Shown: positions 12,017-23,136 of the stretch, one piece after another | Numbering within the stretch: position 1 is the stretch's first letter | How the letters are laid out: every line of letters starts with the position of its first letter | DNA from: a phage | NCBI GenBank assembly: GCA_031441445.1 | Contig: GCA_031441445.1_4353.1 | Strand: one strand, 5' to 3' | DNA: 24,085 nucleotides | Program-made: the position numbers and the translations under genes | The notes under the pieces: generated by a model | Told to the model about the DNA's origin: nothing | Databases searched by the model: none | Seen by the model: the letters and a program-made list of their open reading frames with translations, nothing else

Positions 12017-14302
12017 ATGTCCGATGTAATTTTATCCTACTCGTGGTCACGCCGCAACGCGCGGGCGGGAAAAAAGGATATAAATGTCAGAACCGCACAC
12101 ACGGCAACACTGGACGACCTGAAAGAGTTAATCCAGCCGCTCGATGCCGTTCGCGACGGGATTAACCCTAAGACCGCGCCCGGTTATATCACCGCCGCGT
12201 GCGACTCAACGCACAGCACCGTAAAAGACCCGGAAACTGGAGACTTTAAGCAAGCGCGTAAAGGTTTTTTCTACCGCTGCGATGCGTCTGTAAGCAAATC
12301 GTCGCTGGCCTATCTGGATTTCGACAGCACAACACCGGAAGAGTATCAGGAAGCGGTGCGCCTGGTTAAGCGCAGCCGCTGGGCCATGTGCCTCTATACC
12401 ACGGCATCACATACTGATGAGTCACCGCGCTTTCGCGTCGTAATGCCACTGGCCCGTCCGGTGGAGGGTGGTGACATCATCCGTGTTCGTCATGGGTTGC
12501 TGGAGCACTTCTTCAAAGGCATGGGTGCGGACCGCAGCGGGTTCACTCTGTCGCAGCCGATGTACCTGCCGCCGGTCGGCGCTACCGTTATCTGGTCGCG
12601 CCGCAACGACCTGATCGACCCGAACGAGTTACTGGAAGGCATCCCAGCCGTTGACGTTAGCAGCGCATCGGATTACCAGATACCGGAAGAACTGCGCACC
12701 GCGTTTACAGACGCGTTTGAAGCACTGGCGTTTGAGTACGGCGGCGTCATGACGCCGCGCGGCCTTAAGATGCCAGCCACACCGGAACATGCCGAAAACT
12801 ACAGCGACCCGACACCGCGCCCGGACGACTTCCTGCTGTGCTTCCCGCGCGAGGGGTATGAAGCGCCAAACGTAACCATGATTCACGACACAGACATTAC
12901 GGCGACAGAAGGCCTGTCACCGAAAGAGGTGTGGAAGTACGCGTGCGATGCGACCGGGCTGCCGTTCAGTGAAGTCGCAGAGGCCATCGGTTGGGGGGCG
13001 CGTGAATCTGTCTCATGCAGCCTCGACGACCTGGAAGACGACGAGGACTCAGAGGAGGACGAGTTACCAGAACCGGTAAAGGCTGATTTCGTCGTTGAGG
13101 GGTACATGCCGTCGGATTGTATCTGGGATATTGTCGGGGAATCCGGCACGTACAAATCATTCTATACGCTGGGGATGATGTACCTGAGCGCCGCCGGGTA
13201 CCGGTTTGCGGGGGCTGACACCCAACGTTGCCACCATTTCTATATTGACGGCGAGGGTGGTGCAGCTACACGAACACGTATTGATGCACTCGCGGCTAAA
13301 TATGGCGAGGAAGGTAAAGATTATGTACATGTCATCGATATGGGCGAAATACTCGCTACGCATGGTGATAAAAAAATTCCAGCTCTAATCCGCAGGATGC
13401 GCGAAACCGCAGGGGATGAACCTATTGGCATGGTTGCCTTCGACACCCTTAACCAGACGCTGGCCCTGACGATTGATAAGTTCGACGAGAACAGTTCATC
13501 AACGGCAATCGGTATGGGTAAAGTTATCGCCATCCTGAAAGAAGTGCGCGATGCAACTAAAGCCGCTGTCGGTGTCGTTCACCATACTCCGAAGGGCGGA
13601 AAGAAAGCCCGCGGCAGTGGAGCATTGTATGCGGGTGTCGACGTGGAACTGACAATCGAACGCGCTACCGACCGTCAGATAAACGTATACCACTCTAAAT
13701 TTAAGCACGGTCCGCAACAGAAGACGGTTGGCATGGTACTGGAGTCTGTACAGTTCCGTGAAGCACCGCCGCCGAAAGAGTACCGCGCGGTTGAGTTCCT
13801 CGGTAGCACAGAGGAATACGGCACAATAGTAAACCTCGACCTGCCTGAGCCGCACAAGGCGCTTGTATTGATGCCGTGGGGCTTCGAGCCGTTCAAAACT
13901 GACGAGGAGAAAGAGAGGGAAGAAGGGTTAACTAACGAAGGTAAACAAAATGTACGTAAAACCATAGAGAACGCCGTCAACAGTTCCGAGGCCACGATAC
14001 TCGCGGCGTTTGAACTGGCGGAGGGGACCTACAACGGCAACGAGGGCATCACGGTATCCGCAGCGAATAAGCTCGCGCAGTCTGACCCCAACGCAAAGGC
14101 GTTTAACTCCAAAGAAGCCATAGAACGCGGGAAGATTAAGAAAATGGTTGAGGCTGGGTATCTTGTTCCGGGTACTGACGAAAACAATCAGATAATCCCA
14201 GGCCGTTACAGACTGAACACCATGATAACAGATAACAAGATTCCGAAGACAATATACGAACCGAATGAAATGCTGACAGTGACCGAGGAGGATTTGGAAT
14301 GA
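12017..14302 (+). CDS. bifunctional DNA primase/helicase (AEP-type primase-polymerase N-terminus fused to RecA-like ATPase)
   Basis: 761 aa. N-terminal AEP motifs LAYLDFD (DxD) and TTASHTD (sxH); acidic linker DDLEDDEDSEEDE; C-terminal Walker A GESGTYKS and H-motif VGVVHHTPKG; GAAGGAAA RBS. Confidence 0.7.
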   Translation: MSDVILSYSWSRRNARAGKKDINVRTAHTATLDDLKELIQPLDAVRDGINPKTAPGYITAACDSTHSTVKDPETGDFKQARKGFFYRCDASVSKSSLAYLDFDSTTPEEYQEAVRLVKRSRWAMCLYTTASHTDESPRFRVVMPLARPVEGGDIIRVRHGLLEHFFKGMGADRSGFTLSQPMYLPPVGATVIWSRRNDLIDPNELLEGIPAVDVSSASDYQIPEELRTAFTDAFEALAFEYGGVMTPRGLKMPATPEHAENYSDPTPRPDDFLLCFPREGYEAPNVTMIHDTDITATEGLSPKEVWKYACDATGLPFSEVAEAIGWGARESVSCSLDDLEDDEDSEEDELPEPVKADFVVEGYMPSDCIWDIVGESGTYKSFYTLGMMYLSAAGYRFAGADTQRCHHFYIDGEGGAATRTRIDALAAKYGEEGKDYVHVIDMGEILATHGDKKIPALIRRMRETAGDEPIGMVAFDTLNQTLALTIDKFDENSSSTAIGMGKVIAILKEVRDATKAAVGVVHHTPKGGKKARGSGALYAGVDVELTIERATDRQINVYHSKFKHGPQQKTVGMVLESVQFREAPPPKEYRAVEFLGSTEEYGTIVNLDLPEPHKALVLMPWGFEPFKTDEEKEREEGLTNEGKQNVRKTIENAVNSSEATILAAFELAEGTYNGNEGITVSAANKLAQSDPNAKAFNSKEAIERGKIKKMVEAGYLVPGTDENNQIIPGRYRLNTMITDNKIPKTIYEPNEMLTVTEEDLE

Positions 14303-14613
14303 ATATTTACGATTTTATAGATAACCCGTTTAAAGCAGTGAAGGCAGGATACCGCCCGTCATACCTGACATGTGTTTCCGCTGTAAGCAACAACTGGTGG
14401 ACTTTTTGTGTGTATGCAGCGGGGATTTTTGCGGAGTTTAAAGACATTTTAGACATGACGCTGGCAGAGATTATAAAGTGCCTTTTCAAATTAATTATAT
14501 CGATAACTATTGTTATAAGTTTTCCTGTAAGTGCGTGGTTTCTCGCCTGGATTCAGTACCTGAACGTGCAACACACTATTAAGAATTTGGAAGAACTCGA
14601 TAAGTTGCTATAA
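14299..14613 (+). CDS. small membrane protein (two predicted TM segments), low-GC moron candidate
   Basis: 104 aa; ATG overlaps primase-helicase stop (ATGA); hydrophobic stretches WWTFCVYAAGIFAEF and LFKLIISITIVISFPVSAWFLAWIQYL; visibly AT-richer than flanking genes. Confidence 0.55.
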   Translation: MNIYDFIDNPFKAVKAGYRPSYLTCVSAVSNNWWTFCVYAAGIFAEFKDILDMTLAEIIKCLFKLIISITIVISFPVSAWFLAWIQYLNVQHTIKNLEELDKLL

Positions 14614-14618
14614 AAAGA

Positions 14619-14637
14619 AAGGGGCTTTAAGCCCCTT
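14619..14637 (-). terminator. terminator hairpin for the XRE gene (possibly bidirectional)
   Basis: 7-bp stem AAGGGGC / GCCCCTT around loop TTTAA; the XRE stop codon (14627-14629) lies in the loop; followed on the minus strand by UCUUUUU. Confidence 0.5.
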
Positions 14638-14842
14638 CACCTAACGCCAGCCACTTGGCGTCTACTTCCAGAACTTCCGCCAGTTTGAACAGCGTTGCCG
14701 GGCGGACGTCCTGAGTTACTCCAAGTGCCAGTTGGTTAATCGCGCCCTGGGAAACGCCGGTCAGGGCCGCCAAACGGCGCTGGGAGATGCCGAGTTCTTT
14801 ACGGCGTTGTTCTACACGGGTGCCTAGTTCAGATGGTTGCAT
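14627..14842 (-). CDS. XRE-family (Cro/CI-type) helix-turn-helix transcriptional regulator
   Basis: 71 aa with HTH_3 signature GISQRRLAALTGVSQGAINQLALG; AAGGAG RBS; the only minus-strand gene inside the plus-strand module, with its own promoter and terminator. Confidence 0.8.
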   Translation of the reverse strand: MQPSELGTRVEQRRKELGISQRRLAALTGVSQGAINQLALGVTQDVRPATLFKLAEVLEVDAKWLALGEGA

Positions 14843-14872
14843 GTCAGTTACTCCTTAGTCAGTTGATATGTG

Positions 14873-14886
14873 AATAGTACCATATT
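14873..14886. promoter_or_regulatory. operator-like site O1 overlapping the XRE promoter -10 (AATAG-TACC-ATATT) with extended -10 TGGTACTAT
   Basis: Imperfect copy of the recurring palindrome; minus-strand TGnTACTAT (rc of 14874-14882) serves as an extended -10 for the XRE gene; the -35 is poor. Confidence 0.45.
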
Positions 14887-14906
14887 AATTATTTTAGAAA
14901 AGCCCA

Positions 14907-14935
14907 TTGACATGTGAATAGTTCGCTATTATAGT
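14907..14935 (+). promoter_or_regulatory. early promoter cassette (TTGACA-N17-TATAGT) with operator palindrome
   Basis: -35 14907-14912, -10 14930-14935; palindrome AATAG-TTCG-CTATT at 14917-14930 in the spacer; drives the operon starting at 14964. Confidence 0.55.
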
Positions 14936-14963
14936 TAGCCCATACCAAACGAGAGGGGCAGAT

Positions 14964-15191
14964 ATGAACACAATCACTGGGGCCATAGCTAAAGGTTTTC
15001 GAGCAATTTTCGGCGCTCCGCAAGAAGTGTGCACAAAACATAAATTTGTACTTTCTTGCGTAGTAGGGGATGAGTTTGATGGGTTCGATAAACTTGTTGT
15101 CTGTGACCATTGCGGGCAAGAAGCTATTCAACACTCAAACGGTAAATTTGAACTAATAGACGATAGCCTTACTGAAGGCGACGGTGAGTAA
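14964..15191 (+). CDS. hypothetical small Cys/His-containing protein (possible zinc-binding)
   Basis: 75 aa with C-x3-H ... C-x2-C pattern (CTKHKF...CDHCG); GAGAGGGG RBS. Confidence 0.45.
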   Translation: MNTITGAIAKGFRAIFGAPQEVCTKHKFVLSCVVGDEFDGFDKLVVCDHCGQEAIQHSNGKFELIDDSLTEGDGE

Positions 15192-15215
15192 CTTACACAA
15201 ACAGGAGAGAAACAA

Positions 15216-15716
15216 ATGTTAGAGAAATTCTTAGTATTGCTGGAACGTTTCGTAGTTGCACATGAACTGATTGCCGCGAACAGTGCGAAACAAGTTGTTC
15301 AGGTTGCCACGCCGCTGGAAGTAGAGACGGTATCGTACACCAAAGAAGCGGTAGCTGAGTGCGCTGAAGAAGCAACAAAAGAAATCCCGGTTGAAGGTGA
15401 AGACGTAGTTGACACTAAACCGGCGGAGGAAGAGAAGCCAAAACGCAAGCCGCGTAAAGCTAAAGTAGAGGAACCTGCGCCAGAACCGGAAGAAGAGAAA
15501 GAAGAAGTCGATTACAAGTCTCTGCGTGACCAGATTCAGGCCATCGACGATGCAATTAATGAAGGTCCTAGCGATGCCGCGTGCGATGATTCTGATGAAC
15601 TGCTGGAAGAGTTCACAGGTAAGAAGATGAAGATTGCCGCGATTAAAGACGAAGACCTGGTTGAGTACCTGGAACGCCTGACAGCAATCAAGAACAAGTA
15701 TTTCGAAGAAGAATAA
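15216..15716 (+). CDS. highly acidic low-complexity protein (candidate DNA mimic)
   Basis: 166 aa rich in E/D with a PAEEEKPKRKPRKAKVEEPAPEPEEEKEE segment and EEE C-terminus; CAGGAGAGA RBS. Confidence 0.5.
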   Translation: MLEKFLVLLERFVVAHELIAANSAKQVVQVATPLEVETVSYTKEAVAECAEEATKEIPVEGEDVVDTKPAEEEKPKRKPRKAKVEEPAPEPEEEKEEVDYKSLRDQIQAIDDAINEGPSDAACDDSDELLEEFTGKKMKIAAIKDEDLVEYLERLTAIKNKYFEEE

Positions 15717-15723
15717 CTATCTC

Positions 15724-15742
15724 GCGGCCTTCGGGCCGCTTT
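15724..15742 (+). terminator. UUCG-tetraloop hairpin (weak terminator or attenuator)
   Basis: 6-bp stem GCGGCC / GGCCGC with TTCG loop followed by TTT; between genes 15216..15716 and 15760..16032. Confidence 0.35.
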
Positions 15743-15759
15743 AACTGAGGGTCGGAATT

Positions 15760-16032
15760 ATGATTTACCAACTCTACCGAGCCGTCGACAGGCGGGATAA
15801 CACAGAGGCGCTATGGCTATTGCGTGCTCCGTCCGGTGCGCACCAGATGGAAGAGATGGCGTACTTAGGAAAAGTACCACGGCCTAAAGATATAGGCCGT
15901 CACGTGTCACAGATTAAGCGCACAACTTTCGCCAAGCCTGACTTTTATGTCTTCGAGTCGATGTATGGGTGGGCCATGCACTGCGACCATAAGACACGAC
16001 ATTTAATTGACCAGTGGGAGAACAGGGTATGA
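15760..16032 (+). CDS. hypothetical protein (90 aa)
   Basis: ORF with ATG at 15760; its stop overlaps the downstream ATG (ATGA). Confidence 0.45.
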   Translation: MIYQLYRAVDRRDNTEALWLLRAPSGAHQMEEMAYLGKVPRPKDIGRHVSQIKRTTFAKPDFYVFESMYGWAMHCDHKTRHLIDQWENRV

Positions 16033-16286
16033 ATTGGGTTAGCGTAAACGAAGCACTACCAGAGTCAAAAGATGATTCTGTTTTAGTTTGCTCAGTAGAC
16101 GGAAGTAAATGTGACGATAATGGGTTCCCGGAAGGCGGAATTGATTTTGTGCATATACAGGACTATTTCGACGACATTACTGCTGGGCTGGATGAAAACG
16201 GAAATCAGTTATATACGAAACGGTATATCGAGATGGGTATAACACACTGGATGTATTTACCAGAACTACCGGAGGAGGCTAAATAA
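16029..16286 (+). CDS. DUF551-like phage protein (paralog of 9938..10177)
   Basis: ORF track 16014..16286 starts at GTG; ATG at 16029 preferred. MNWVSVNEALPE N-terminus and THWMYLPELPEE C-terminus parallel the minus-strand paralog. Confidence 0.5.
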   Translation: MNWVSVNEALPESKDDSVLVCSVDGSKCDDNGFPEGGIDFVHIQDYFDDITAGLDENGNQLYTKRYIEMGITHWMYLPELPEEAK

Positions 16287-17527
16287 TGATTCTAAAAGAA
16301 CGAGGCGGCAATAATGATGTACACGCCTTACTGTCACCGTCAGGCGCTAAAAAGTGGCTGTCATGCGCTGCGTCGCTGGCGTGTGAAAAAGATACCCCTA
16401 ACACGTCGGGTAAAGCCGCTGTATTAGGAACCGCCATGCACACCATAGCTGAGGTCCATCTCAACGCCTATATACGCGGCACTGCGTTGCCGTTGGAGCG
16501 TGAAGTCGGCGCTTACGTACTGGATGAAGGCAAAGGTCAGATTAAGGCGCTAATCAGCCCGATGAAAGGCGCGGTACTGATTACGGCGGACATGATTGAG
16601 CAGGTGCGCAAGTACACCGACTACTGCAAAGCGATTATAGACGTAGCGACTTACGCCAAGCTGGAAATGCGTGTCAATCTTACTGAGGTATTGCATCCGG
16701 GGTATGAAGGCGTTGAGACGTTCGGAACCGCTGACCTCGTTGCTGTCCAGGAACTGGCAAACACCGACGAGCACATGCTCATTATCGGCGACCTGAAAAC
16801 CGGGCGGCATCGCGTCGAAGCGAAAGAAAACAAGCAGCTTATGCTTTACGCTCTCGGTGTTTATCGTCGACTCAAGAGACGTTATAACATAACAACCGTT
16901 CGTCTGGTCATCTTCCAGCCTTACGCTGGGGGCGCGACAGAGTGGGACATCTCGGTTGAAGGACTGGAACTGTTCGCTAAGTTCGCACAGAAACGCGCGC
17001 TGTTAGCACTTGATGCATATTTCCGCGGTAAGAAGAACCTGAAAGCGTCAGACTTTAAGCCGTCAGTAGATGGTTGCCAGTGGTGCCGGTTCTCTGAACA
17101 GTGTGCCGCGCGTACAAAGACGGTTAATTCTGTACTGGCGGAAGAACTTGAAGACGACTTTGTGCTGGAACTGACGACGGAGCAACTCGTAGTTGAGTAT
17201 GAGAAGTTGCCGCTGTTGCGCCAGCACATCGACAAGGTTGAGAAAGCTATGGCGGCCGCGTTGCATTCAGGTAAGAAAGTTCCTGGTTACAAGTTGGTTG
17301 AAGGCCGCCCGGGTAATCGTGCATGGAAGGATACCGATGCGGTATTCGAAAAGTACGGTACTATGCTGCAAAAGGTAGTTCTCATGACGCCAACCGAAGC
17401 GGTTAAAGTTGTGCCTGAAGATGAACTGAAAGACTTCATTACACGTAAGCCAGGCGCACCATGTGTCGCAACGGCAGATGACAAACGTCCTGAGTGGAAT
17501 CAGGTTAGTGAAGAAGATTTGGAATAA
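16286..17527 (+). CDS. PD-(D/E)XK nuclease, Cas4/RecB-like with Cys cluster
   Basis: 413 aa. Motifs TADLV, IGDLKTG (D-x-K) and QLMLY (QxxxY); N-terminal Cys (WLSCAASLAC) plus C-terminal CQWCRFSEQC suggest an Fe-S cluster; GGAGGAGG RBS; ends in SEEDLE. Confidence 0.65.
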   Translation: MILKERGGNNDVHALLSPSGAKKWLSCAASLACEKDTPNTSGKAAVLGTAMHTIAEVHLNAYIRGTALPLEREVGAYVLDEGKGQIKALISPMKGAVLITADMIEQVRKYTDYCKAIIDVATYAKLEMRVNLTEVLHPGYEGVETFGTADLVAVQELANTDEHMLIIGDLKTGRHRVEAKENKQLMLYALGVYRRLKRRYNITTVRLVIFQPYAGGATEWDISVEGLELFAKFAQKRALLALDAYFRGKKNLKASDFKPSVDGCQWCRFSEQCAARTKTVNSVLAEELEDDFVLELTTEQLVVEYEKLPLLRQHIDKVEKAMAAALHSGKKVPGYKLVEGRPGNRAWKDTDAVFEKYGTMLQKVVLMTPTEAVKVVPEDELKDFITRKPGAPCVATADDKRPEWNQVSEEDLE

Positions 17528-17531
17528 AGTG

Positions 17532-17560
17532 TTGACACCTGAATAGTTAGCTATTATAGT
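17532..17560 (+). promoter_or_regulatory. early promoter cassette (TTGACA-N17-TATAGT) with operator palindrome
   Basis: -35 17532-17537, -10 17555-17560; palindrome AATAG-TTAG-CTATT at 17542-17555; drives the SSB gene. Confidence 0.55.
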
Positions 17561-17615
17561 TCTAATCACTGGCCGGGCAGCTCCCGGAGTAAACTGAAAA
17601 CTGAGGAATCGAGAA

Positions 17616-18242
17616 ATGGGACTGAAATTAAATCTGCGTAAAGTAAACACTGCTTGGGTTAACGTATTCGAACGCGAAAAAGACCGTGAAAATGATGATG
17701 GTTCAATCACTAAAGGTCAGTACAGCGCGACTATTATCCTGCCGTCCGACCACGCGCAAATCGACGCGCTCTACGACACCGTTTACGCTGTAGTTGAAGA
17801 AGCGTTAGGTGCAGCCGCCGCCGAGAAGTGGATGAAGTCCAACTACGGCGAAGGTAAGCACATGGATAAATGTGCGATTAAAGACATTGCCGAGCGTGAC
17901 AATCCGTTTGAAGACTTCCCGGAAGGCTTCTACTTCAAAGCGAAGGCACAGAAGCAGCCGCTGATTGTAACCTCTAAAAAAGGTGAGACTCAGGTAGAAC
18001 AGGACTTCAATGTAGACGGTGAACAGATTGAAGGTGAACAGGTTTACAGCGGATGCTTAGCTAACGTAAGCGTTGAAATCTGGTTCAGCCAGAAATACAA
18101 AGTCCTCGGCGTTAACCTGCTGGCGATTAAATACGTTGGCGAAGGCAAAGCGTTCGGCGGTTCTAAAGTCGCTGCGAGCGTCAATGACCTGGAAGACGAC
18201 GAAGAAGATGAAGCACCGCGCCGCGAACGTCGCCGCCGCTAA
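17616..18242 (+). CDS. single-stranded DNA-binding protein, T7 gp2.5-like (putative)
   Basis: 208 aa with architecture resembling gp2.5-type SSBs (by recollection, not alignment) and an acidic C-terminal patch DLEDDEEDE followed by RRERRRR; GAGGAATCGAGAAATG initiation region. Confidence 0.5.
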   Translation: MGLKLNLRKVNTAWVNVFEREKDRENDDGSITKGQYSATIILPSDHAQIDALYDTVYAVVEEALGAAAAEKWMKSNYGEGKHMDKCAIKDIAERDNPFEDFPEGFYFKAKAQKQPLIVTSKKGETQVEQDFNVDGEQIEGEQVYSGCLANVSVEIWFSQKYKVLGVNLLAIKYVGEGKAFGGSKVAASVNDLEDDEEDEAPRRERRRR

Positions 18243-18262
18243 TATCTGAATCAATTTAACTA

Positions 18263-18285
18263 AGGCCCTTCATTGGGCCTTTTTA
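18263..18285 (+). terminator. rho-independent terminator between SSB and DNA polymerase genes
   Basis: 7-bp stem AAGGCCC / GGGCCTT with 5-nt loop followed by TTTT. Confidence 0.55.
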
Positions 18286-18301
18286 CTAGGGGTCAAAAAT
18301 A

Positions 18302-20482
18302 ATGAGTTACCTGTTCTTAGACTTTGAAACATTCTCAGAAGCCGATTTGAAGAAAGTCGGTTCTTACGCTTACGCCGAACACCCGTCAACCGAAGTGCTT
18401 ATCTGTACATATGCTTTTGACGACGAACCTGTGCGGGTATGGGATTGCACCGACGGCAGCGACATGCCGGGGGATTTACACCGCGCACTGCGCCGCCTTG
18501 TTAAGCCCAACAGCCGCATCAAGATGGTGTGGCACAACGGTGGACTTTTCGATCGCCTAATCATGAAACACTGCTGGGACTTTGATATTCCGGTAAGTAA
18601 CACCATTGATACTATGATTTGGGCGTTCCGTCACGCGCTGCCGGGTTCTCTTGATGCGCTGTGCGAAGTGCTGGGCGTGTCTGCAGACAACGCGAAAGAT
18701 AAACGCGGCAAGGCTCTGATTAAGCGTTTCTCTAAACCGACGCCGAAGAACTACAAAATCCGCCGCTACACCGCAGAAACTCACCCTGACGAGTGGGCGA
18801 TGTTCATCAGGTACGCCGTGAGCGACATCACTGCGATGCGTGAAGTCTTCCATAAGCTGCCGCGTTGGGGTAACTCCGAGTTCGAAGACCGTGTACTGGA
18901 ACTTGACCAGTTAATCAACGACCGCGGATTTAAGGTTGACGTCGCACTGGCGGAAGCCGCGATTGAAGCCGTAGAGAAGCACAAGGCACAGTTACAGGAA
19001 GAAGCTCAACGTAAATACGGCGGCTCGCTTACCGGTAAAGACTTCCTTCCGATTCTGCGTGAACTTGCGCCCGCGCACCGCATACACAATGCACAGAAGT
19101 CGACGCTTAACGACCTGTTGGCAGATGATGATTTACCGGACGACGCCCGGATGATTATCGAAATGCGCCTCGGGGCCGCGTCAACAGCGTCCACGAAATA
19201 TAACCCGCTGCTGTTAGGCCGCTCGTCGGACGACCGACGCCGCGGTTGTATCCAGTACGGTGGGGCAAAGCGTACGTTACGGTTCGCGGGTAAAGGCTTC
19301 CAGCCACAGAACCTGGCGCGTGGGTACTATCACGATGATGAACTGGATAAAGGCATTTCAGCGTTACTTAAGGGCCGGGCGCACCGCCGATTTGACGTAG
19401 CCAAGCTGACGGCATCTACCGTTCGTAGCTGCATTATACCGGAAGCTGGGCATAAGTTTGTCGTCGCCGATTACTCTAACGTTGAGGGTCGCGGGCTTGC
19501 GTGGCTGGCAGGCGAAGAAACCGCGCTAGATACGTTCCGCGCCGGACTGGATATTTACTGCGTAACAGCAGGTAAGATGTTTGGCATGGAGCCGGATTAC
19601 ATTAAGAAAGAACGTAAAGACTTACGCCAGATTGGTAAAGCCTGCGAATTGGGCCTCGGATACGCGGGCGGTGTCGGTGCTTTCGTTCAGTTCGCCAAGA
19701 ACCTCGGCCTTGACCTTGTAGATATGGCAAAAACAATGGATGGGACTTTCCCTGACCACATCTGGGCCGCTACCGCGCGCGGGTACGAGTGGGCGCGTAT
19801 TCAGGAAGCCAAGCGACCACCGCGTCCGGGTGAAAAGGATGACCGACCATCATATATTCTTGATAAGAAAGTCTGGCGTACATGCGACGCAATTAAGCGT
19901 ATGTGGCGGGAGTCCCACCCGGAAACAGTAGCTTTCTGGCGTGATATTGAAGACGCAGCTATGGCAGCAATCCGTAATCCGGGGAAAGAGTTCACCGCTG
20001 GCCCTCGCGGGGTTAAGTTTTCTCGCAACGTAGAAACAGACAATAACGGCAACAAAGTCGCTGGTTGGTGGTTGCGCATGACGTTGCCGTCAGGTCGCGT
20101 TATGTCATACCCGGGCGTCGGGTTGAGCGTGTCAAAAGAGACAGACGAAGACGGAAAAGTTTCTACTAACGTGCGCATCAAGTATCAGGGTGAAAATCAG
20201 TTAACCAGGCAGTGGGGCTTCCAGTACACCTACTCCGGTAAACTGGTGGAAAACTGCACTCAGGCACTGTGCCGTGACTTGCTGGCTAATGCGCTACTTA
20301 ACGTTGAAGCAAACGGCTACCCGATTGTACTTCACGTACACGATGAGATTATCTGCGAGACACCGGATTCGCCTGAATACAATGTGGCGGAACTCGAACG
20401 ATTGATGTGTGAATTACCAGACTGGGCTAAGGGGTTCCCTTTGGTTGCAGAAGGTGCGGAGATGAAGCGTTATGCTAAGTAA
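18302..20482 (+). CDS. DNA polymerase, family A, with 3'-5' exonuclease domain
   Basis: 726 aa. Exo I motif LDFETFS; polymerase motif A ADYSNVEGRGLAWLAGEE, motif B RQIGKACELGLGYAGG, motif C VLHVHDEIICE; AGGGG RBS. Confidence 0.85.
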   Translation: MSYLFLDFETFSEADLKKVGSYAYAEHPSTEVLICTYAFDDEPVRVWDCTDGSDMPGDLHRALRRLVKPNSRIKMVWHNGGLFDRLIMKHCWDFDIPVSNTIDTMIWAFRHALPGSLDALCEVLGVSADNAKDKRGKALIKRFSKPTPKNYKIRRYTAETHPDEWAMFIRYAVSDITAMREVFHKLPRWGNSEFEDRVLELDQLINDRGFKVDVALAEAAIEAVEKHKAQLQEEAQRKYGGSLTGKDFLPILRELAPAHRIHNAQKSTLNDLLADDDLPDDARMIIEMRLGAASTASTKYNPLLLGRSSDDRRRGCIQYGGAKRTLRFAGKGFQPQNLARGYYHDDELDKGISALLKGRAHRRFDVAKLTASTVRSCIIPEAGHKFVVADYSNVEGRGLAWLAGEETALDTFRAGLDIYCVTAGKMFGMEPDYIKKERKDLRQIGKACELGLGYAGGVGAFVQFAKNLGLDLVDMAKTMDGTFPDHIWAATARGYEWARIQEAKRPPRPGEKDDRPSYILDKKVWRTCDAIKRMWRESHPETVAFWRDIEDAAMAAIRNPGKEFTAGPRGVKFSRNVETDNNGNKVAGWWLRMTLPSGRVMSYPGVGLSVSKETDEDGKVSTNVRIKYQGENQLTRQWGFQYTYSGKLVENCTQALCRDLLANALLNVEANGYPIVLHVHDEIICETPDSPEYNVAELERLMCELPDWAKGFPLVAEGAEMKRYAK

Positions 20483-20603
20483 ACTGATTGTTACAGCACT
20501 GGCGGGATTCGCCGCCGGTGTCTACTGTCACGGGGGGCAATACGGCATGATGGTAGCCGTATTGGGTATGTTCATCGCAATTTATCTGTGGGTGCCGGAA
20601 TGA
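20472..20603 (+). CDS. small hydrophobic peptide (43 aa, MLSKLIVTALAGFAAGVYCHGGQYGMMVAVLGMFIAIYLWVPE)
   Basis: Unlisted ORF overlapping the 3' end of the polymerase gene by 11 nt; its stop overlaps the next ATG (ATGA). Confidence 0.3.
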   Translation: MLSKLIVTALAGFAAGVYCHGGQYGMMVAVLGMFIAIYLWVPE

Positions 20604-20698
20604 AAATTTACTGGTTTTATGAGGAAGACTGCCGAATCTGTCCGCGCTGCGGTATTGAGCATACGAAACGTGAGGGGTGTATAGATGAGTACGCCTGA
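20600..20698 (+). CDS. small Cys-rich peptide (32 aa, MKIYWFYEEDCRICPRCGIEHTKREGCIDEYA)
   Basis: Unlisted ORF with C-x2-C-x2-C ... C pattern; coupled to the upstream peptide; overlaps the VRR-NUC start. Confidence 0.25.
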   Translation: MKIYWFYEEDCRICPRCGIEHTKREGCIDEYA

Positions 20699-20972
20699 GG
20701 GGCGCATACAGAAATACGCAAAAGAGCGATTCGAGGCCCTCGGTGGCCTCGTTCGCAAGCTCTCCTACGAAGGACGTTCCGGCGCTCCCGACCTGCTGGT
20801 AATTCTCCCCGGCGGTATCATCTGGTTTGTCGAGGTTAAGAAAGACGAAAACACGAAGCCAGACCCGCACCAGTTACGTGAGCATGAGCGGATGCGTAAA
20901 CGCGGTGCAAATGTTTTTGTCGTTGGTTCGTTTAAACAGGTTGACGACCTAATAGCAAACTATTATAGTTAG
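20685..20972 (+). CDS. VRR-NUC domain nuclease
   Basis: 95 aa with PD-(D/E)XK core GAPDLLVILPGGIIWFVEVKK; GTGAGGGG RBS. Confidence 0.7.
   Translation: MSTPEGRIQKYAKERFEALGGLVRKLSYEGRSGAPDLLVILPGGIIWFVEVKKDENTKPDPHQLREHERMRKRGANVFVVGSFKQVDDLIANYYS
20941..20969 (+). promoter_or_regulatory. early promoter cassette (TTGACG-N17-TATAGT) with operator palindrome, inside the 3' end of the VRR-NUC gene
   Basis: -35 20941-20946, -10 20964-20969; palindrome AATAG-CAAA-CTATT at 20951-20964; downstream leader matches the cassette at 14930-14945. Confidence 0.5.
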
Positions 20973-21002
20973 CCATACACCAACAATATAAGGAATTGAG
21001 AA

Positions 21003-21197
21003 ATGAAACACGAATATGACCGCAAGCCAGCACGTGACATCGTACCTGGCGACATGATTTTCAACGTTAAGACCCGCCAGCCTGTTGCCGTTGATACTGT
21101 GTTCGTCGAGTCAAACGGTAAACTGGTTATCGAAGATGTAACAGGCAACGTTACCGCGTTCGGGCGTAAAGAGCTGGTACTCTACGTTAAGGATTGA
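21003..21197 (+). CDS. hypothetical protein (64 aa)
   Basis: ATG with AAGGAATTGAGAAATG initiation region, downstream of promoter 20941-20969. Confidence 0.45.
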   Translation: MKHEYDRKPARDIVPGDMIFNVKTRQPVAVDTVFVESNGKLVIEDVTGNVTAFGRKELVLYVKD

Positions 21198-21199
21198 AC

Positions 21200-22624
21200 A
21201 TGTCTAAATTTATCCGTCGAGAGTACCAGAAGCTCATGACTTCGTTCATGCTGCAACACCCGCGCTGTAATATCTGGTGCGGAATGGGGGGAGGTAAAAC
21301 CTCCTCCACTATGTGGGTGCTCAACCGCCTGTTCCGCAACGGGCAGCTTACGGAAGAGGACCGCGTGTTAATCCTTGCCCCGTTACGTGTTGCGTCCGGT
21401 ACGTGGCCCGCTGAACAAGAGAAATGGCAATTCCCTTGTCTGCGTGTCGTAGATGCAACTGGTTCGGAGAAGCGCCGCATCGCAGCGCTGGAGTCAGATG
21501 CTAACGTGGTGTGCACTAACTACGAAGTTATCGAGTGGCTAATTGACTACTACGGCAAAGACGACTGGCCTTTTACGGTTATCGTTGCCGATGAAAGCAC
21601 GAAGCTTAAATCGTTCCGCAGCCGTTCGGGTGGTAGCAAGCGGGCAAAGGCGCTCAGCAAGGTTGCGTTCGGAAAGGTTAAGCGTTTCATCAACCTGACA
21701 GGCACACCGTCACCAAACGGCCTCAAAGACTTGTGGGGTCAGAACTGGTTTATCGACGCTGGCGAGCGCCTCGGCTCTTCGTACACAGCATTCACCGACC
21801 GCTGGTTTAACTCGGTACAGAAAGGTAAATCGGCTATGGCCCGCGAGTATCATGCACGACCGGGTGCGGATAATGAGATTCATCAGAAGATGAAAGACAT
21901 CAGCCTGACCATAGACCCTGCCGAGTGGTTTGGTTGTGAAGCGCCTGTTATCGTACCGGTGGAAATAGACCTGCCGAAGAAAGCGCGTCAGGCGTACATA
22001 GATATGGAGGAGAAGTTATTCGCAGAACTGGAGAGCGGGGAAGTTGAAGCGGCTAACGCTGCGGCGAAGACCTCAAAGTGCTTGCAGATTGCATCTGGTG
22101 CTGTATATGTATCCGGGCCAGACGGCGAAGCAACCAAAGAATGGGAGAAAGTGCACGACACGAAACTGGATGCGCTGGCGTCCATTGTCGAGGAGTTACA
22201 GGGTGCGCCGTTACTGGTAGCCTATCAGTTCAAGCACGAACTGGAGCGCGTCCTTAAGCGATTCCCACAAGCACAGGCCTTTGCCAAAGGCGCCAGGGGT
22301 AATAAGCAGATGGAAGCATGGAACCGCGGGGAAATAGAGATTTTGTGCGTCCACCCTGCGTCCGCCGGGCATGGTTTGAATTTACAGGACGGGGGTCATC
22401 ATCTGGCGTTCATCTCGCAAGGCTGGAACCTTGAGCACTATTTGCAGGTTGTTGAGCGCATAGGCCCAGTCCGCCAGAAACAGGCGGGTCACGAGCGCCC
22501 GGTGTTCCTTTATCACATCGTTGCTAAAGACACTCTGGACGAGGTTGTCGCCGCGCGTACCGACGAGAAGAAATCGGTACAGGAAGAGTTGCTTAATTAC
22601 ATGAAGAGACGAGGTAAGAAATGA
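21200..22624 (+). CDS. SNF2-like (superfamily 2) helicase
   Basis: ORF track 21194..22624 starts at TTG; ATG at 21200 preferred. Motif I CGMGGGKTSST, motif II VIVADESTKLK, motif V-like HPASAGHGLNLQ, motif VI-like QVVERIGPVRQ. Confidence 0.75.
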   Translation: MSKFIRREYQKLMTSFMLQHPRCNIWCGMGGGKTSSTMWVLNRLFRNGQLTEEDRVLILAPLRVASGTWPAEQEKWQFPCLRVVDATGSEKRRIAALESDANVVCTNYEVIEWLIDYYGKDDWPFTVIVADESTKLKSFRSRSGGSKRAKALSKVAFGKVKRFINLTGTPSPNGLKDLWGQNWFIDAGERLGSSYTAFTDRWFNSVQKGKSAMAREYHARPGADNEIHQKMKDISLTIDPAEWFGCEAPVIVPVEIDLPKKARQAYIDMEEKLFAELESGEVEAANAAAKTSKCLQIASGAVYVSGPDGEATKEWEKVHDTKLDALASIVEELQGAPLLVAYQFKHELERVLKRFPQAQAFAKGARGNKQMEAWNRGEIEILCVHPASAGHGLNLQDGGHHLAFISQGWNLEHYLQVVERIGPVRQKQAGHERPVFLYHIVAKDTLDEVVAARTDEKKSVQEELLNYMKRRGKK

Positions 22625-23136
22625 TGGATTTCGAAGAGTTTCTACTTAAAGCTCATCTGCTGGCGCGTGGGTTTGACGCTGACCGTCTCCAGGTAGTCTT
22701 AGCCCCTGGAGTAGCTACGTTTTACCTGTGGGGGTTTGACGGTAGGCTTCGCGGATACCAGCATTACAAACCACATGCCGAAAAGAACTGTAAAAACCCT
22801 AAAGACGCGCGGTACTTTACCAGAACAACAAGGCCGTGTTTATGGGGGCTTGAGTATTTGCCGGAAAGCGGGGTGGTATTTGTTACCGAAAGCATATTCA
22901 AAGCCGTAGCCTTGATGAATTGCGGGTTCAATGCTGTAAGCGCACTGGGGTCAAATATATCAACAGACCTACGGCAGCAAATGTCACTTTTGCCGTATGA
23001 CTGGGTGTGCGCTGGCGACAATGATAAAGCTGGATTAAAGTTCAGCAAAACATTCACCAGAGGATTTGTATCTAACGACCTTGATGAACTTTGTGAAGAA
23101 GAAATAACGTATCTTGCGAGGAAATTTACCAGATGA
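22621..23136 (+). CDS. Toprim-domain protein (DnaG-like catalytic core)
   Basis: 171 aa with conserved Glu (VFVTESIFKAVAL) and DxD (VCAGDNDKAG) signatures; ATG overlaps SNF2 stop (ATGA). Confidence 0.55.
   Translation: MMDFEEFLLKAHLLARGFDADRLQVVLAPGVATFYLWGFDGRLRGYQHYKPHAEKNCKNPKDARYFTRTTRPCLWGLEYLPESGVVFVTESIFKAVALMNCGFNAVSALGSNISTDLRQQMSLLPYDWVCAGDNDKAGLKFSKTFTRGFVSNDLDELCEEEITYLARKFTR

Follow-up and report, generated by a model that had tools for sequence, protein, structure and literature searches.

A shared acidic D-L motif, most likely a docking tag, on the primase-helicase, nuclease and SSB of a Kagunavirus replication module

Genes and motif copies of the replication module

The 24,085-nucleotide stretch of phage DNA analysed here (the window) comes from a Kagunavirus (K1G-like) phage and makes up its replication module. 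The following features were identified, with coordinates given in the window.

12017..14302, + strand: primase-helicase gene (761 aa, two motif copies), AEP-type primase N-domain and AAA_25/RepA-like helicase
13016..13063, + strand: motif copy 1, CSLDDLEDDEDSEEDE, in the linker between the primase and helicase domains (translation checked)
14276..14299, + strand: motif copy 2, primase-helicase C-terminal tail TVTEEDLE (translation checked)
15216..15716, + strand: small acidic protein "p13" (phrog_3127), ending in KYFEEE
16286..17527, + strand: DUF2800 PD-(D/E)XK (Cas4/RecB/AddB-like) nuclease gene, 413 aa (Pfam, phrog)
17501..17524, + strand: motif copy 3, nuclease C-terminal tail QVSEEDLE (translation checked)
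17616..18242, + strand: gp2.5-like/Enc34-type (DUF2815) SSB gene, 208 aa (Pfam, phrog)
18177..18212, + strand: motif copy 4, SVNDLEDDEEDE, directly 3' of the SSB OB fold (translation, alignment)
18213..18239, + strand: SSB basic C-terminal extension APRRERRRR (translation)
18302..20482, + strand: family A DNA polymerase with 3'-5' exonuclease and polymerase domains (Pfam DNA_pol_A, DNA_pol_A_exo1; phrog_17)

The primase-helicase matched phrog_3228 "replicative helicase-primase" (E=2.7e-285), with Pfam AAA_25 at aa 352-528 (E=5.8e-20). The nuclease matched Pfam DUF2800 and PDDEXK_1 (E=3.4e-66 and 1.6e-9, respectively) and the exonuclease family phrog_69; residues D150, D169 and K171 as well as C27, C264, C267 and C273 were invariant in a 17-sequence alignment. 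The SSB matched Pfam PF10991 (E=3.9e-16) and phrog_112, with 4JG2 and 5ODJ as PDB relatives. No 5'-3' exonuclease domain was detected in the polymerase with Pfam. The gene order nuclease-SSB-polymerase was kept in 140/140 loci.

All four acidic elements listed in a preliminary description of this DNA were present. The span given for them there, 14285-17524, reaches only from one C-terminal tail to the other and thus does not include the copies in the SSB and the linker. The arginine-rich C-terminus of the SSB had been called unusual; it is typical of the clade, whose SSB tails regularly alternate between acidic and basic blocks, with APRRERRRR as the shortest version. In the AF2 model of the SSB (pLDDT 88.6), the OB domain was confident to approximately aa 180. 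The motif fell in the low-confidence tail (pLDDT ~60-65) with a 4-residue helix at 189-192, and aa 199-208 had pLDDT <50. The C-terminus of a nuclease ortholog is predicted to be disordered.

Conservation of the motif in the clade and the wider family

D-L was invariant at all four sites among 13 lineage representatives (48-85% nuclease identity), while the flanks were variable and rich in indels. The linker and C-terminal copies of the primase-helicase were compared in the 12 representatives with a full-length protein. The linker copy showed C..DL in 12/12, with the clade consensus C-[ST/Q/D]-x-x-D-L-x-D, and in the C-terminal tail the D-L columns had an entropy of zero, whereas the 30 columns before them were full of indels. 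When 17 sequences with 32-57% identity to the window nuclease were aligned, just 38 columns were invariant, and D411 and L412 were among these. In the SSB, D191, L192 and D195 were invariant across 11 genera, with only 16 invariant columns in total. Among ~170 close relatives, D or L was altered in isolated variants only.

The preliminary description had remarked that both tails are encoded by the same GATTTGGAAT nucleotides. This proved uninformative. Relatives use all six Leu codons (TTG, TTA, CTG, CTT, CTC or CTA), GAT or GAC for Asp, and three stop codons, with D-L unchanged. Such free synonymous codon use at a fixed D-L indicates selection on the protein. When the last 40 residues of the 37 window ORFs were shuffled, two proteins had the last five residues in common in 0.03% of trials. 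The sharing of the 6-mer DLEDDE was not significant by itself, as ~0.9 shared 6-mers are expected by chance; its significance comes from its conservation in other phages.

EEDLE is the version found here of a motif, "DDFxDL", that runs through the whole family. It stands after the OB fold of gp2.5-like SSBs, among them T7 gp2.5, and forms the C-terminus of DUF2800 nucleases from phages that infect Proteobacteria, Firmicutes or Bacteroidetes. The consensus end of DUF2800 was DKRPA-x6-8-DDFxDL, with F in at least 90% of sequences, and QVSEEDLE of the window nuclease occupies the "DDFxDL" position after the conserved "DKRP" segment. SSB tails across the family ended in DDFDD[VIL]..[DE]DL[VA]. The SSB motif SVNDLEDDEEDE was homologous to "DDFDEL" of the sister lineage Scapp, "DAYDED" of Enc34 and "EDDWADEV" of T7 gp2.5 (Enc34 and T7 aligned). 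Scapp carries DDFDEL in the SSB, SDFENLE at the end of the nuclease and EEFEELE at the end of the primase, and the window clade lacks the F-x-x at the corresponding place in all three proteins alike.

The four copies represent one short motif, roughly [ST]-x-[DE]-D-L-x-[DE], within disordered acidic segments, which in this clade derives from an "acidic + F/Y/W/L anchor" motif (DDFxDL) after the OB fold of gp2.5-like SSBs. The cognate DUF2800 nuclease has a copy of the SSB motif at its C-terminus, as do the primase or primase-helicase and other module proteins in several lineages. Many primases of the distant clade were without the motif. The earlier proposal of one short linear motif common to replication and recombination proteins was supported by the invariance of D-L across 13 lineages in variable, indel-rich tails, by the parallel loss of F-x-x relative to Scapp, and by the co-variation of tails within genomes across the wider family.

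Co-variation of the tails within genomes

Among 56 representatives, the mean similarity of nuclease and SSB tails was 27.6 within genomes and 23.3 between genomes, while control pairs scored ~13; the acidic composition common to the tails raises absolute similarity but not the within- over between-genome excess. This excess (z=6.5) was reached by 0/5000 permutations. Nuclease and primase tails also co-varied (z=3.0). Lineage-specific endings common to several proteins of one genome included ..DMI, ..IL and FEDLT. In Casjensviridae (Chi/Enc34-like), aromatic-DDEDDEV ended the primase, an ORF3-like protein, the nuclease and the SSB, and WDDEDD ended SNF2. The identity of the aromatic anchor co-varied non-strictly (in L174, the nuclease has Y where the SSB has W).

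Acidic anchored C-tails were found on 30% of nucleases, 28% of SSBs and 50% of p13-like proteins, compared with 1% of other ORFs, and on 0% of polymerase (0/40), VRR-NUC and SNF2 proteins. Since p13 counterparts elsewhere end in the tail of their own lineage, p13 is a possible further client of the motif system. The type of motif varies with the lineage of the phage, not with its host: E. coli and Salmonella phages carried DL (window clade), aromatic-DDEDEV endings (Chi-like) or a final DF (T7), and DL was kept throughout window-clade members from Serratia, Edwardsiella, E. coli and Salmonella.

Candidate receptors and proposed docking

In T7, the tails of the gp4 primase-helicase (ending STDWSNDTDF) and the gp2.5 SSB (ending ADEDGDF) dock on basic patches of the gp5 polymerase. 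The tails vie for a single site and have roles in loading and exchanging the polymerase and in displacing the SSB. For the shared acidic motif, T7 was the right analogy to draw. The window SSB is gp2.5-like, primase-helicase and SSB have a common acidic tail with a hydrophobic anchor in both phages, and gp2.5 carries the same "motif 1" (FGGGEDDWADEV) directly after the OB fold. However, the window motif is anchored by Leu within D-L, whereas T7 uses a C-terminal Phe; the window SSB carries its copy internally, ahead of an arginine tail, and a further internal copy is present in the primase-helicase. The window helicase is AAA_25/RepA-like and fused to an AEP-type primase, whereas that of T7 is DnaB-like and fused to Toprim. 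The window nuclease carries the tail, whereas T7 gp6 ends in EIYLWRP without an acidic tail.

The window SSB belongs to the same family (PF10991) as the Enc34 ORF6/DUF2815 structures 5ODJ, 4JG2 and 4KLK. The Enc34 ORF6 crystal shows the final residues of the tail that could be traced inserted into the concave sheet/ssDNA groove of a neighbouring molecule, as reported also for 4JG2, 4KLK and T7 gp2.5, and deletion of the ORF6 tail changes DNA specificity (PMC5686142). By residue count on the ORF6 sequence, the inserted residues are approximately SDAYD, the motif homolog, and window SVNDLE aligns with Enc34 SDAYDE; the window SSB differs in having Leu for Tyr and a basic extension. These crystal contacts may be packing artefacts. 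The Enc34 paper discusses the tail solely as an SSB feature and does not mention that the same peptide ends the neighbouring nuclease, primase, ORF3 and SNF2 (PMC5686142).

The bacterial SSB tip (DDDIPF ending) likewise combines an acidic stretch with a hydrophobic tip as a universal docking peptide. There, only the SSB has the peptide and the partners have pockets, whereas the phage partners carry copies of the SSB peptide, and the window SSB is without this tip. In eukaryotes, the basic OB-fold cleft of RPA70N binds acidic-hydrophobic, ssDNA-mimicking peptides of DNA2, PrimPol, WRN, BLM, HelB and ATRIP. The likeness lies in an SSB OB fold as (here candidate) receptor, in acidic-amphipathic ligands and in the clients, a RecB/Cas4-like Fe-S nuclease (DNA2), an AEP primase (PrimPol) and helicases. 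The two systems are not homologous; RPA has a dedicated protein-binding OB fold, whereas the single OB fold of gp2.5-type SSBs, to which we infer peptide binding, also binds ssDNA. The earlier remark that a nuclease in such a complex would be unusual was overstated, and a nuclease within a replisome is not unusual in itself. T7 gp6 is stimulated via the gp2.5 tail, and a place in the replisome has been proposed for it (PMC4124056), and DNA2 docks on RPA70N through an acidic peptide (10.1101/2022.07.14.500000).

The ssDNA groove of the SSB is at least as good a candidate receptor as the polymerase, because the motif outlives replacement of PolA and crystals of homologous SSBs show groove insertion. 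In six loci, PolA (phrog_17) was replaced in place by a phrog_1252 polymerase without detectable similarity to it (BLASTP E=8), and the DDF tails of nuclease and SSB were unchanged. These loci speak against a polymerase that is the sole hub, with all three tails docking on PolA basic patches and the SSB groove playing no part for clients. This arrangement has its precedent in T7, where the gp4 and gp2.5 tails bind the gp5 front and TBD basic patches and PDB 6P7E shows a bound DTDF peptide. It also fits the polymerase being the one large conserved module protein that never carries the motif, and the invariant gene order; in addition, a tethered 5' nuclease would be functionally sensible beside a PolA that shows no 5'-3' exonuclease domain. 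However, no thioredoxin-binding-domain-like insert or basic patch was identified by sequence in PolA, where PDB matches covered only aa 372-484, and we regard the polymerase as sole hub as a serious but rather unlikely alternative.

Each acidic tail might instead fold back on the DNA-binding site of its own protein as an intramolecular DNA mimic, with the likeness arising by compositional convergence and no common partner. In gp2.5 and Enc34 the tail controls the DNA binding of the protein that bears it, all three motif carriers bind DNA, and acidic tails score above background generally (23 across genomes vs ~13). Parallel auto-inhibition is nevertheless improbable, as it leaves unexplained the within-genome excess, the same F-x-x loss in three proteins, and the ..DEV, ..DMI and FEDLT endings on unrelated folds, small HTH proteins and SNF2 among them.

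Binding of the motif to a host protein, such as a member of the SSB interactome, a sliding clamp or a processivity factor, is very improbable. T7 polymerase uses host thioredoxin, and some distant DUF2815 SSBs end in DDDDIPF or DDLPF, the bacterial SSB C-terminal tip. However, three motif types occur among E. coli and Salmonella phages, DL is retained within a single lineage across four host genera, and the window motif has neither an IPF tip nor the QLxLF clamp-binding pattern. Chance (~3e-4 for two proteins with the same last five residues), recent DNA duplication or a Shine-Dalgarno/overlapping start for the next gene (GAGGAGGATTTGGAATGA) can be set aside as negligible: GAGGAGG does lie in the primase-helicase tail codons, 8 nt upstream of the stop-overlapping ATG at 14299, but the nuclease tail is GAAGAAGATTTGGAATAA with the next gene start 90 nt downstream, and synonymous codon and stop variation at fixed D-L refutes a nucleotide-level cause.

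Being kept and changing in step across related phages, the EEDLE/DLEDDE copies are most likely a common docking tag joining primase-helicase, nuclease and SSB in one replication/recombination machine. The best explanation overall, which we consider reasonably probable, is a docking peptide that co-evolves among its carriers, mimics ssDNA and binds a basic site encoded by the phage. The carboxylates would mimic phosphates and the Leu/Phe anchor a base, and the motif would plug into a basic ssDNA-binding surface, most probably the groove of the phage's own SSB, with a basic patch of the polymerase as a possible second receptor, as in T7. The helicase and the 5'-end-resecting nuclease, both generators of ssDNA, could then hold SSB and/or polymerase and pass it on, with client tails competing with the SSB's own tail for one site to give an organised replisome/recombination complex. 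With only one OB fold, a gp2.5-type SSB can probably bind either a tail or ssDNA but not both at once, and this restricts the ways in which clients could travel on SSB-coated DNA. The Bas14 nuclease ortholog is an active nuclease dispensable for plaque formation (10.64898/2026.07.14.737667), which makes any function that depends on the tail non-essential under laboratory conditions. If the docking-peptide explanation holds, this module would have a wider version of the docking known from phage T7.

Acidic motif copies in the replication module

The window shared about 90-96% nucleotide identity with the K1G-like Escherichia phages (Kagunavirus, Guernseyvirinae). The replication module was located at 12017-23136 on the + strand and contained the following genes:

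12017-14302 (+), primase-helicase, an AEP-type primase fused to an AAA_25/RepA-like helicase
between the primase-helicase and the nuclease, some small genes and, on the opposite strand, an XRE-type repressor (14627-14842, minus) without a replisome-type tail
16286-17527 (+), DUF2800 PD-(D/E)XK nuclease
17616-18242 (+), Enc34/gp2.5-type SSB
18302-20482 (+), family A polymerase with a 3'-5' exonuclease
downstream of the polymerase (+), a VRR-NUC protein, an SNF2 helicase and a Toprim fragment

The nuclease matched DUF2800 (PF10926, E=3.4e-66 over profile positions 1-368), and its invariant residues included D150, D169 and K171 (D…D-x-K) as well as C27, C264, C267 and C273, a C…CxxCxxxxxC cluster predicted to bind iron-sulfur. 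The SSB belonged to the gp2.5 OB-fold family, as shown by PF10991 (E=3.9e-16), phrog_112 ('Gp2.5-like'), a confident AF2 OB fold and an alignment with T7 gp2.5. A duf2800-gp2.5-polA triad has already been published as a phage module (PMC8093625). The three genes were adjacent on the same strand in the window (16286-20482) with no other ssb gene, and the order nuclease-SSB-polymerase was kept in 140 of 140 loci. No 5'-3' exonuclease domain was detected in the window polymerase by the domain search. The 171-aa Toprim/DnaG-like primase fragment (22621-23136, +; phrog_849, E=2.7e-48) adjoined the SNF2 helicase, so that the phage has a separate Toprim protein besides its AEP-type primase-helicase. 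Mobile insertions were seen in the replication genes of some close relatives (L047:15590-18055; L025:12034-15132; also L044, L045 and L049-L052). One was an intein in an 821-aa SNF2 protein with Hint and LAGLIDADG domains, and another was an insert of about 306 aa, without a Pfam match, after residue 447 of a 1032-aa polymerase. The window copies of SNF2 and polymerase were uninterrupted.

A short acidic peptide centered on Asp-Leu (D-L) occurred four times in this module:

13016-13063 (+), linker between primase and helicase, CSLDDLEDDEDSEEDE
14276-14299 (+), C-terminus of the primase-helicase, TVTEEDLE
17501-17524 (+), C-terminus of the nuclease, QVSEEDLE
18177-18239 (+), SSB after the OB fold, SVNDLEDDEEDE followed by the C-terminal APRRERRRR

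All four elements named in the preliminary description were thus found, at its positions or just beyond its span. The chance that two among the 37 ORFs of the window share their last five residues was about 0.03% in local-composition shuffles, while the shared hexamer DLEDDE, taken alone, was not significant in a shuffle test. The claim that EEDLE is encoded by the same nucleotides in both genes carried no meaning, because relatives have any of the six Leu codons, either Asp codon and any of the three stop codons at these positions. GAGGAGG in the primase-helicase tail could serve the next, overlapping ORF as its ribosome-binding site; this concern was removed by the varying codons of the relatives, and the same synonymous-codon spectrum ruled out a Shine-Dalgarno sequence, an overlapping start or duplicated DNA as the cause of the shared tail. 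NEMLTVTEEDLE, PEWNQVSEEDLE, AASVNDLEDDEEDE and SCSLDDLEDDEDS were named as candidate ligand peptides for SSB(1-187) and the polymerase.

Two further candidates for a copy were rejected. Polymerase LNDLLADDDLPDDAR (aa 268-282) is a conserved folded segment, present also in the polymerases of Scapp (a sister lineage) and Enc34, and is not disordered. In p13, a small acidic protein (15216-15716, +; phrog_3127), most genera have Val in place of the Leu of DEDLVEYL, and the segment resembles an amphipathic helix. In relatives from the clade, two small ORFs had endings similar to the motif, PDLEDDED and KDLEDDYE (L016:220-411 (-) and L062:2913-3278 (-), respectively); their homologs in other genomes were without it, and the window showed no counterpart.

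Conservation and family-wide form of the motif

The first-round protein search returned only relatives 94-97% identical, and diversity was obtained from a representative search and locus scans. Annotated relatives were gathered from Jerseyvirus, Serratia phage Smarc3, Dhillonvirus and Eiauvirus, together with 80 viral contigs. Thirteen representatives with mutual nuclease identity below 85% (48-85% to the window) were compared, and every one had D-L at each of the four sites. The final 30-40 columns of the primase-helicase were broken up by indels except at D-L, where the entropy was 0; the acidic C-tail of this protein, which resembles SVNDLEDDE of the SSB, was kept in 12 lineages. In the nuclease, D411 and L412 were among only 38 invariant columns (17 sequences, 32-57% identical to the window), the remainder including the catalytic D..D-x-K residues and the four cysteines. 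In the SSB, D191, L192 and D195 were among only 16 invariant columns of an 11-genus alignment. Among about 170 close relatives, D or L was altered by isolated variants only, and the clade consensus was roughly [ST]-x-[DE]-D-L-x-[DE].

An AF2 model of the SSB, built from database homologs, was confident in the OB fold to about residue 180. The tail had a pLDDT of 46-65, with 60-65 at a four-residue helix, VNDL, and below 50 in the arginine tail. The C-terminus of the Bas14 nuclease ortholog is also predicted to be disordered (preprint 10.64898/2026.07.14.737667). The motif was therefore a conserved island in disordered, fast-evolving segments and recurred in three unrelated folds, as expected of SLiMs; judged from sequence conservation and predicted disorder, the D-L pattern is the signature of a short linear motif. 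The SSBs of the clade and many metagenomic DUF2815 proteins carried alternating acidic and basic blocks, (DDDDEPRxKRRSRR)n, in loci L003-L005, L055-L072 and L087 and homologs P0271-P0380, and APRRERRRR of the window (18213-18239, +) was the shortest version. Many other DUF2815 SSBs ended in DDDDVV, DDDLV or DDDDIPF.

Roughly 11,000 DUF2800 homologs were found in all. Among 150 nuclease representatives at 50% identity, the family ending was GKPxVAPESDKRPAL-x6-8-DDFxDL, often followed by a C-terminal [DE]DL[VAI]. The Phe of DDFxDL was present in at least 90% of the sequences, and D-L in the window nuclease end DKRPEWNQVSEEDLE fell at the position of DDFxDL. ADDFDELDEDD of the Scapp SSB aligned exactly where the window's clade reads DD---LxDD, and the Scapp nuclease and primase ended in SDFENLE and EEFEELE, respectively. 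The 'F-x-x' was therefore lost at the corresponding place in three different proteins of the window's clade. T7 gp2.5 carries FGGGEDDWADEV immediately behind its OB fold (aa ~183-194; L169), where it aligned with the DDFxDL / DL motif of DUF2815 SSBs; this segment is distinct from the well-studied C-terminal DGDF tip. The first post-OB motif is thus ancient in the gp2.5-like SSB family. A joint loss of the stacking aromatic in the groove (Enc34 Trp150/Tyr156) with the F-to-L change was considered and dropped, since no clean pattern was found.

Co-variation of tails across lineages

Tail sequences of replication proteins by lineage; (end) marks the C-terminus
Window (K1G-like): primase-helicase TVTEEDLE (end); nuclease QVSEEDLE (end); SSB SVNDLEDDEEDE…; p13 KYFEEE (end)
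Scapp: primase EEFEELE (end); nuclease SDFENLE (end); SSB ADDFDELDEDD…; gp55 IYEEFDE (end)
Enc34: primase …DPFDDEDEV (end); nuclease …GAYDDEDEDDDEV (end); SSB …SDAYDEDEDEWDEDEV (end); ORF3 …AGEEEEV (end); SNF2 …IWDDEED (end)
Staphylococcus phiSa2wa: primase …ESLEDLI (end); nuclease …AEDDFDKL (end); SSB …AEDDFDELDTDDEDFL (end)
Streptococcus Javan108: nuclease DEF; SSB DEF
Bacteroides BK735P1: nuclease DF[DE]; SSB DF[DE]
Proteobacterial loci L119-L138: primase LFEDES; nuclease QFEDLT; SSB FEDLS; small HTH proteins YFEDLT
T7: gp4 STDWSNDTDF (end); gp6 nuclease without acidic tail; SSB …ADEDGDF (end)

The Enc34 pattern recurred in ER24, which is Chi-like, and in ten more loci of Casjensviridae. 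Across 80 proteobacterial viral loci, nuclease and SSB agreed even in lineage-specific endings, for example DMI in both or IL in both. The tails of 56 representatives with less than 70% nuclease identity were compared by the best ungapped BLOSUM62 score. The mean score between nuclease and SSB tails was 27.6 for pairs from one genome and 23.3 for pairs from different genomes (z=6.5; reached by 0 of 5000 permutations), in a test that reduces but does not remove phylogenetic non-independence. Nuclease-polymerase and nuclease-VRR-NUC controls scored about 13 without a within-genome excess, and nuclease-primase tails gave z=3.0. Independent evolution predicts equal similarity within and between genomes, and the excess therefore indicates co-evolution. 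Among nucleases, SSBs and p13-like proteins, 28-50% had acidic, hydrophobic-anchored tails; the share was 1% in other ORFs and 0 of 40 in polymerases. Strict co-variation of the anchor, which had looked compensatory in Enc34 (Y/Y) and Chi-like ER24 (W/W), was rejected when more Casjensviridae loci combined a Y nuclease with a W SSB; the identity of the anchor aromatic is therefore interchangeable.

In the p13 proteins, a hydrophobic helix at the N-terminus and an aromatic-acidic end (KYFEEE, KYYEIED, EFFEFEEE) were conserved, with a K/E/P-rich stretch between them, and the counterparts Enc34 ORF3, Chi-like gp44 and Scapp gp55 ended with the replisome tail of their own lineage. p13 may be another client or the organizer of the complex. 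XRE-type HTH proteins beside the module also carried the lineage-specific motif at their ends (YFEDLTQEENAE and DPDFLDLGDDLAE), in 83-96 aa ORFs of L119, L123, L127, L132, L134 and L135 and at L095:6431-7243 and L114:7016-7909. These endings suggest that HTH regulators may also plug into the common site.

Candidate receptor, proposed mechanism and wider meaning

The motif type followed the phage lineage and not the host. E. coli and Salmonella phages used DL, aromatic-DDEDEV or DF endings, and one lineage kept DL on four host genera. This distribution points to a receptor that is probably phage-encoded and co-evolving with the motif. An experimental precedent exists for two candidates. The first is the polymerase, a conserved module member that never carried the motif. 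In T7, the gp4 and gp2.5 tails dock on gp5 at its front and TBD basic patches and take part in loading, exchange and the displacement of SSB. The other candidate is the ssDNA groove of the SSB. In the crystal of Enc34 ORF6, the last traceable tail residues enter the concave sheet of a neighbor, and equivalent contacts are reported for 4JG2, 4KLK and T7 gp2.5, all of them possible packing artefacts; tail removal in the Enc34 SSB alters DNA specificity (PMC5686142). By our own residue count, these last residues are about SDAYD, the homolog of SVNDLE in the window. Binding in the groove is known from crystals and for the homologous tail of the SSB alone; the peptides of the clients have the acidic-hydrophobic character. 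In six distant loci (L120, L131, L146, L149, L154 and L166), the place of PolA (phrog_17) was taken by a polymerase of phrog_1252, about 600 aa long, with weak PolB-type Pfam matches and no detectable similarity to the window polymerase, and nuclease and SSB kept matching DDF tails. These six loci speak for the SSB groove as the receptor or, at the least, show that the tails do not depend on PolA.

In the mechanism we infer, the motif would mimic ssDNA and occupy a basic surface with which the phage's own machinery binds ssDNA. A helicase hexamer, if the protein forms one, would present 12 copies and the 5'-resecting nuclease a single one, and both are enzymes that create ssDNA. SSB would be held by its groove until nascent ssDNA displaced the tail and took over the SSB. 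The copy on the SSB itself would control DNA binding by this protein, in the manner of gp2.5 and Enc34. Should the polymerase act as a receptor too, the tails would link it to the helicase and anchor a 5' nuclease on an enzyme that has none of its own.

Bas14 (Escherichia phage TheodorHerzl, L170) encodes an ortholog of the window nuclease, bas14_0045, with 46.6% identity. According to the preprint, the ortholog is an active nuclease, inactive as a D177A/K179A mutant, and the reported trigger of retron type IX (Sen3); bas14_0045 has missense mutations or truncations in escaper phages, where truncation is tolerated (10.64898/2026.07.14.737667). Any tail-dependent role of the nuclease is therefore not essential for plaque formation. 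Its dispensability fits a role in recombination, repair or processing better than indispensable primer removal.

As in T7, the SSB of the window is a gp2.5 OB-fold protein and the primase-helicase C-tail resembles the motif of the SSB. However, the T7 SSB ends with an essential aromatic DF, whereas the window SSB ends in APRRERRRR with an internal, Leu-anchored acidic motif, and the helicase is of another family. With no C-terminal aromatic tip and a different helicase, the window is, by analogy, a system that would work like that of T7 and is not a member of it. The bacterial SSB-Ct tip D-D-D-[IL]-P-F was absent from all window proteins and was seen only in distant DUF2815 SSBs. Eukaryotic RPA70N is a close functional parallel, in which an OB cleft binds ssDNA-mimicking acidic-hydrophobic peptides of DNA2 (a RecB-like Fe-S nuclease), PrimPol (an AEP primase) and several helicases. 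It is possible, though we consider it somewhat doubtful, that duf2800-gp2.5-(pol) phages run a viral counterpart of the RPA70N hub, with the SSB's single OB groove as address and a co-evolving, lineage-specific tail code as ligand. The code may read DL in the window, DDFxDL in the majority of lineages and aromatic-DDEDEV in phages of the Chi/Enc34 type, and its carriers may be all proteins that have to meet the SSB, namely the nuclease, the primase or helicase, the SNF2 helicase, the small acidic protein and, in some lineages, HTH regulators.

The likeness of the SSB and primase-helicase tails in T7, the acidic tail of DUF2815 SSBs and the SSB-directed acidic peptides of RPA partners are already known. 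In the part of the open-access literature covered, no description was found of a DUF2800 C-terminus copying or co-evolving with the motif of the neighboring SSB, of its spread to primases, SNF2, small acidic and HTH proteins, or of the Leu-anchored four-copy variant in Guernseyvirinae, Dhillonvirus and Eiauvirus. The open-access passages, titles and abstract openings on DUF2800 likewise held no mention of the shared tail.

The duf2800-gp2.5-(pol) module is very widespread in phages of Proteobacteria, Firmicutes and Bacteroidetes, and to our knowledge its protein-protein wiring has not been studied so far. A conserved peptide changing in step between proteins is a direct handle for point mutations, peptides and tail swaps, which can map helicase-nuclease-SSB-polymerase coupling outside the T7 model. 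The last few codons of the motif-bearing genes are marked out as functional, a point to heed when such genes are tagged, truncated or annotated. The shared tail suggests a role for the Cas4-like nuclease, which is also a trigger of retron defense, and extends the idea of partners copying the SSB's own tail, a logic documented so far mainly for eukaryotic RPA. If the hub reading is true, the code would hand SSB to nascent ssDNA and prevent replisome cross-talk between co-infecting phages.
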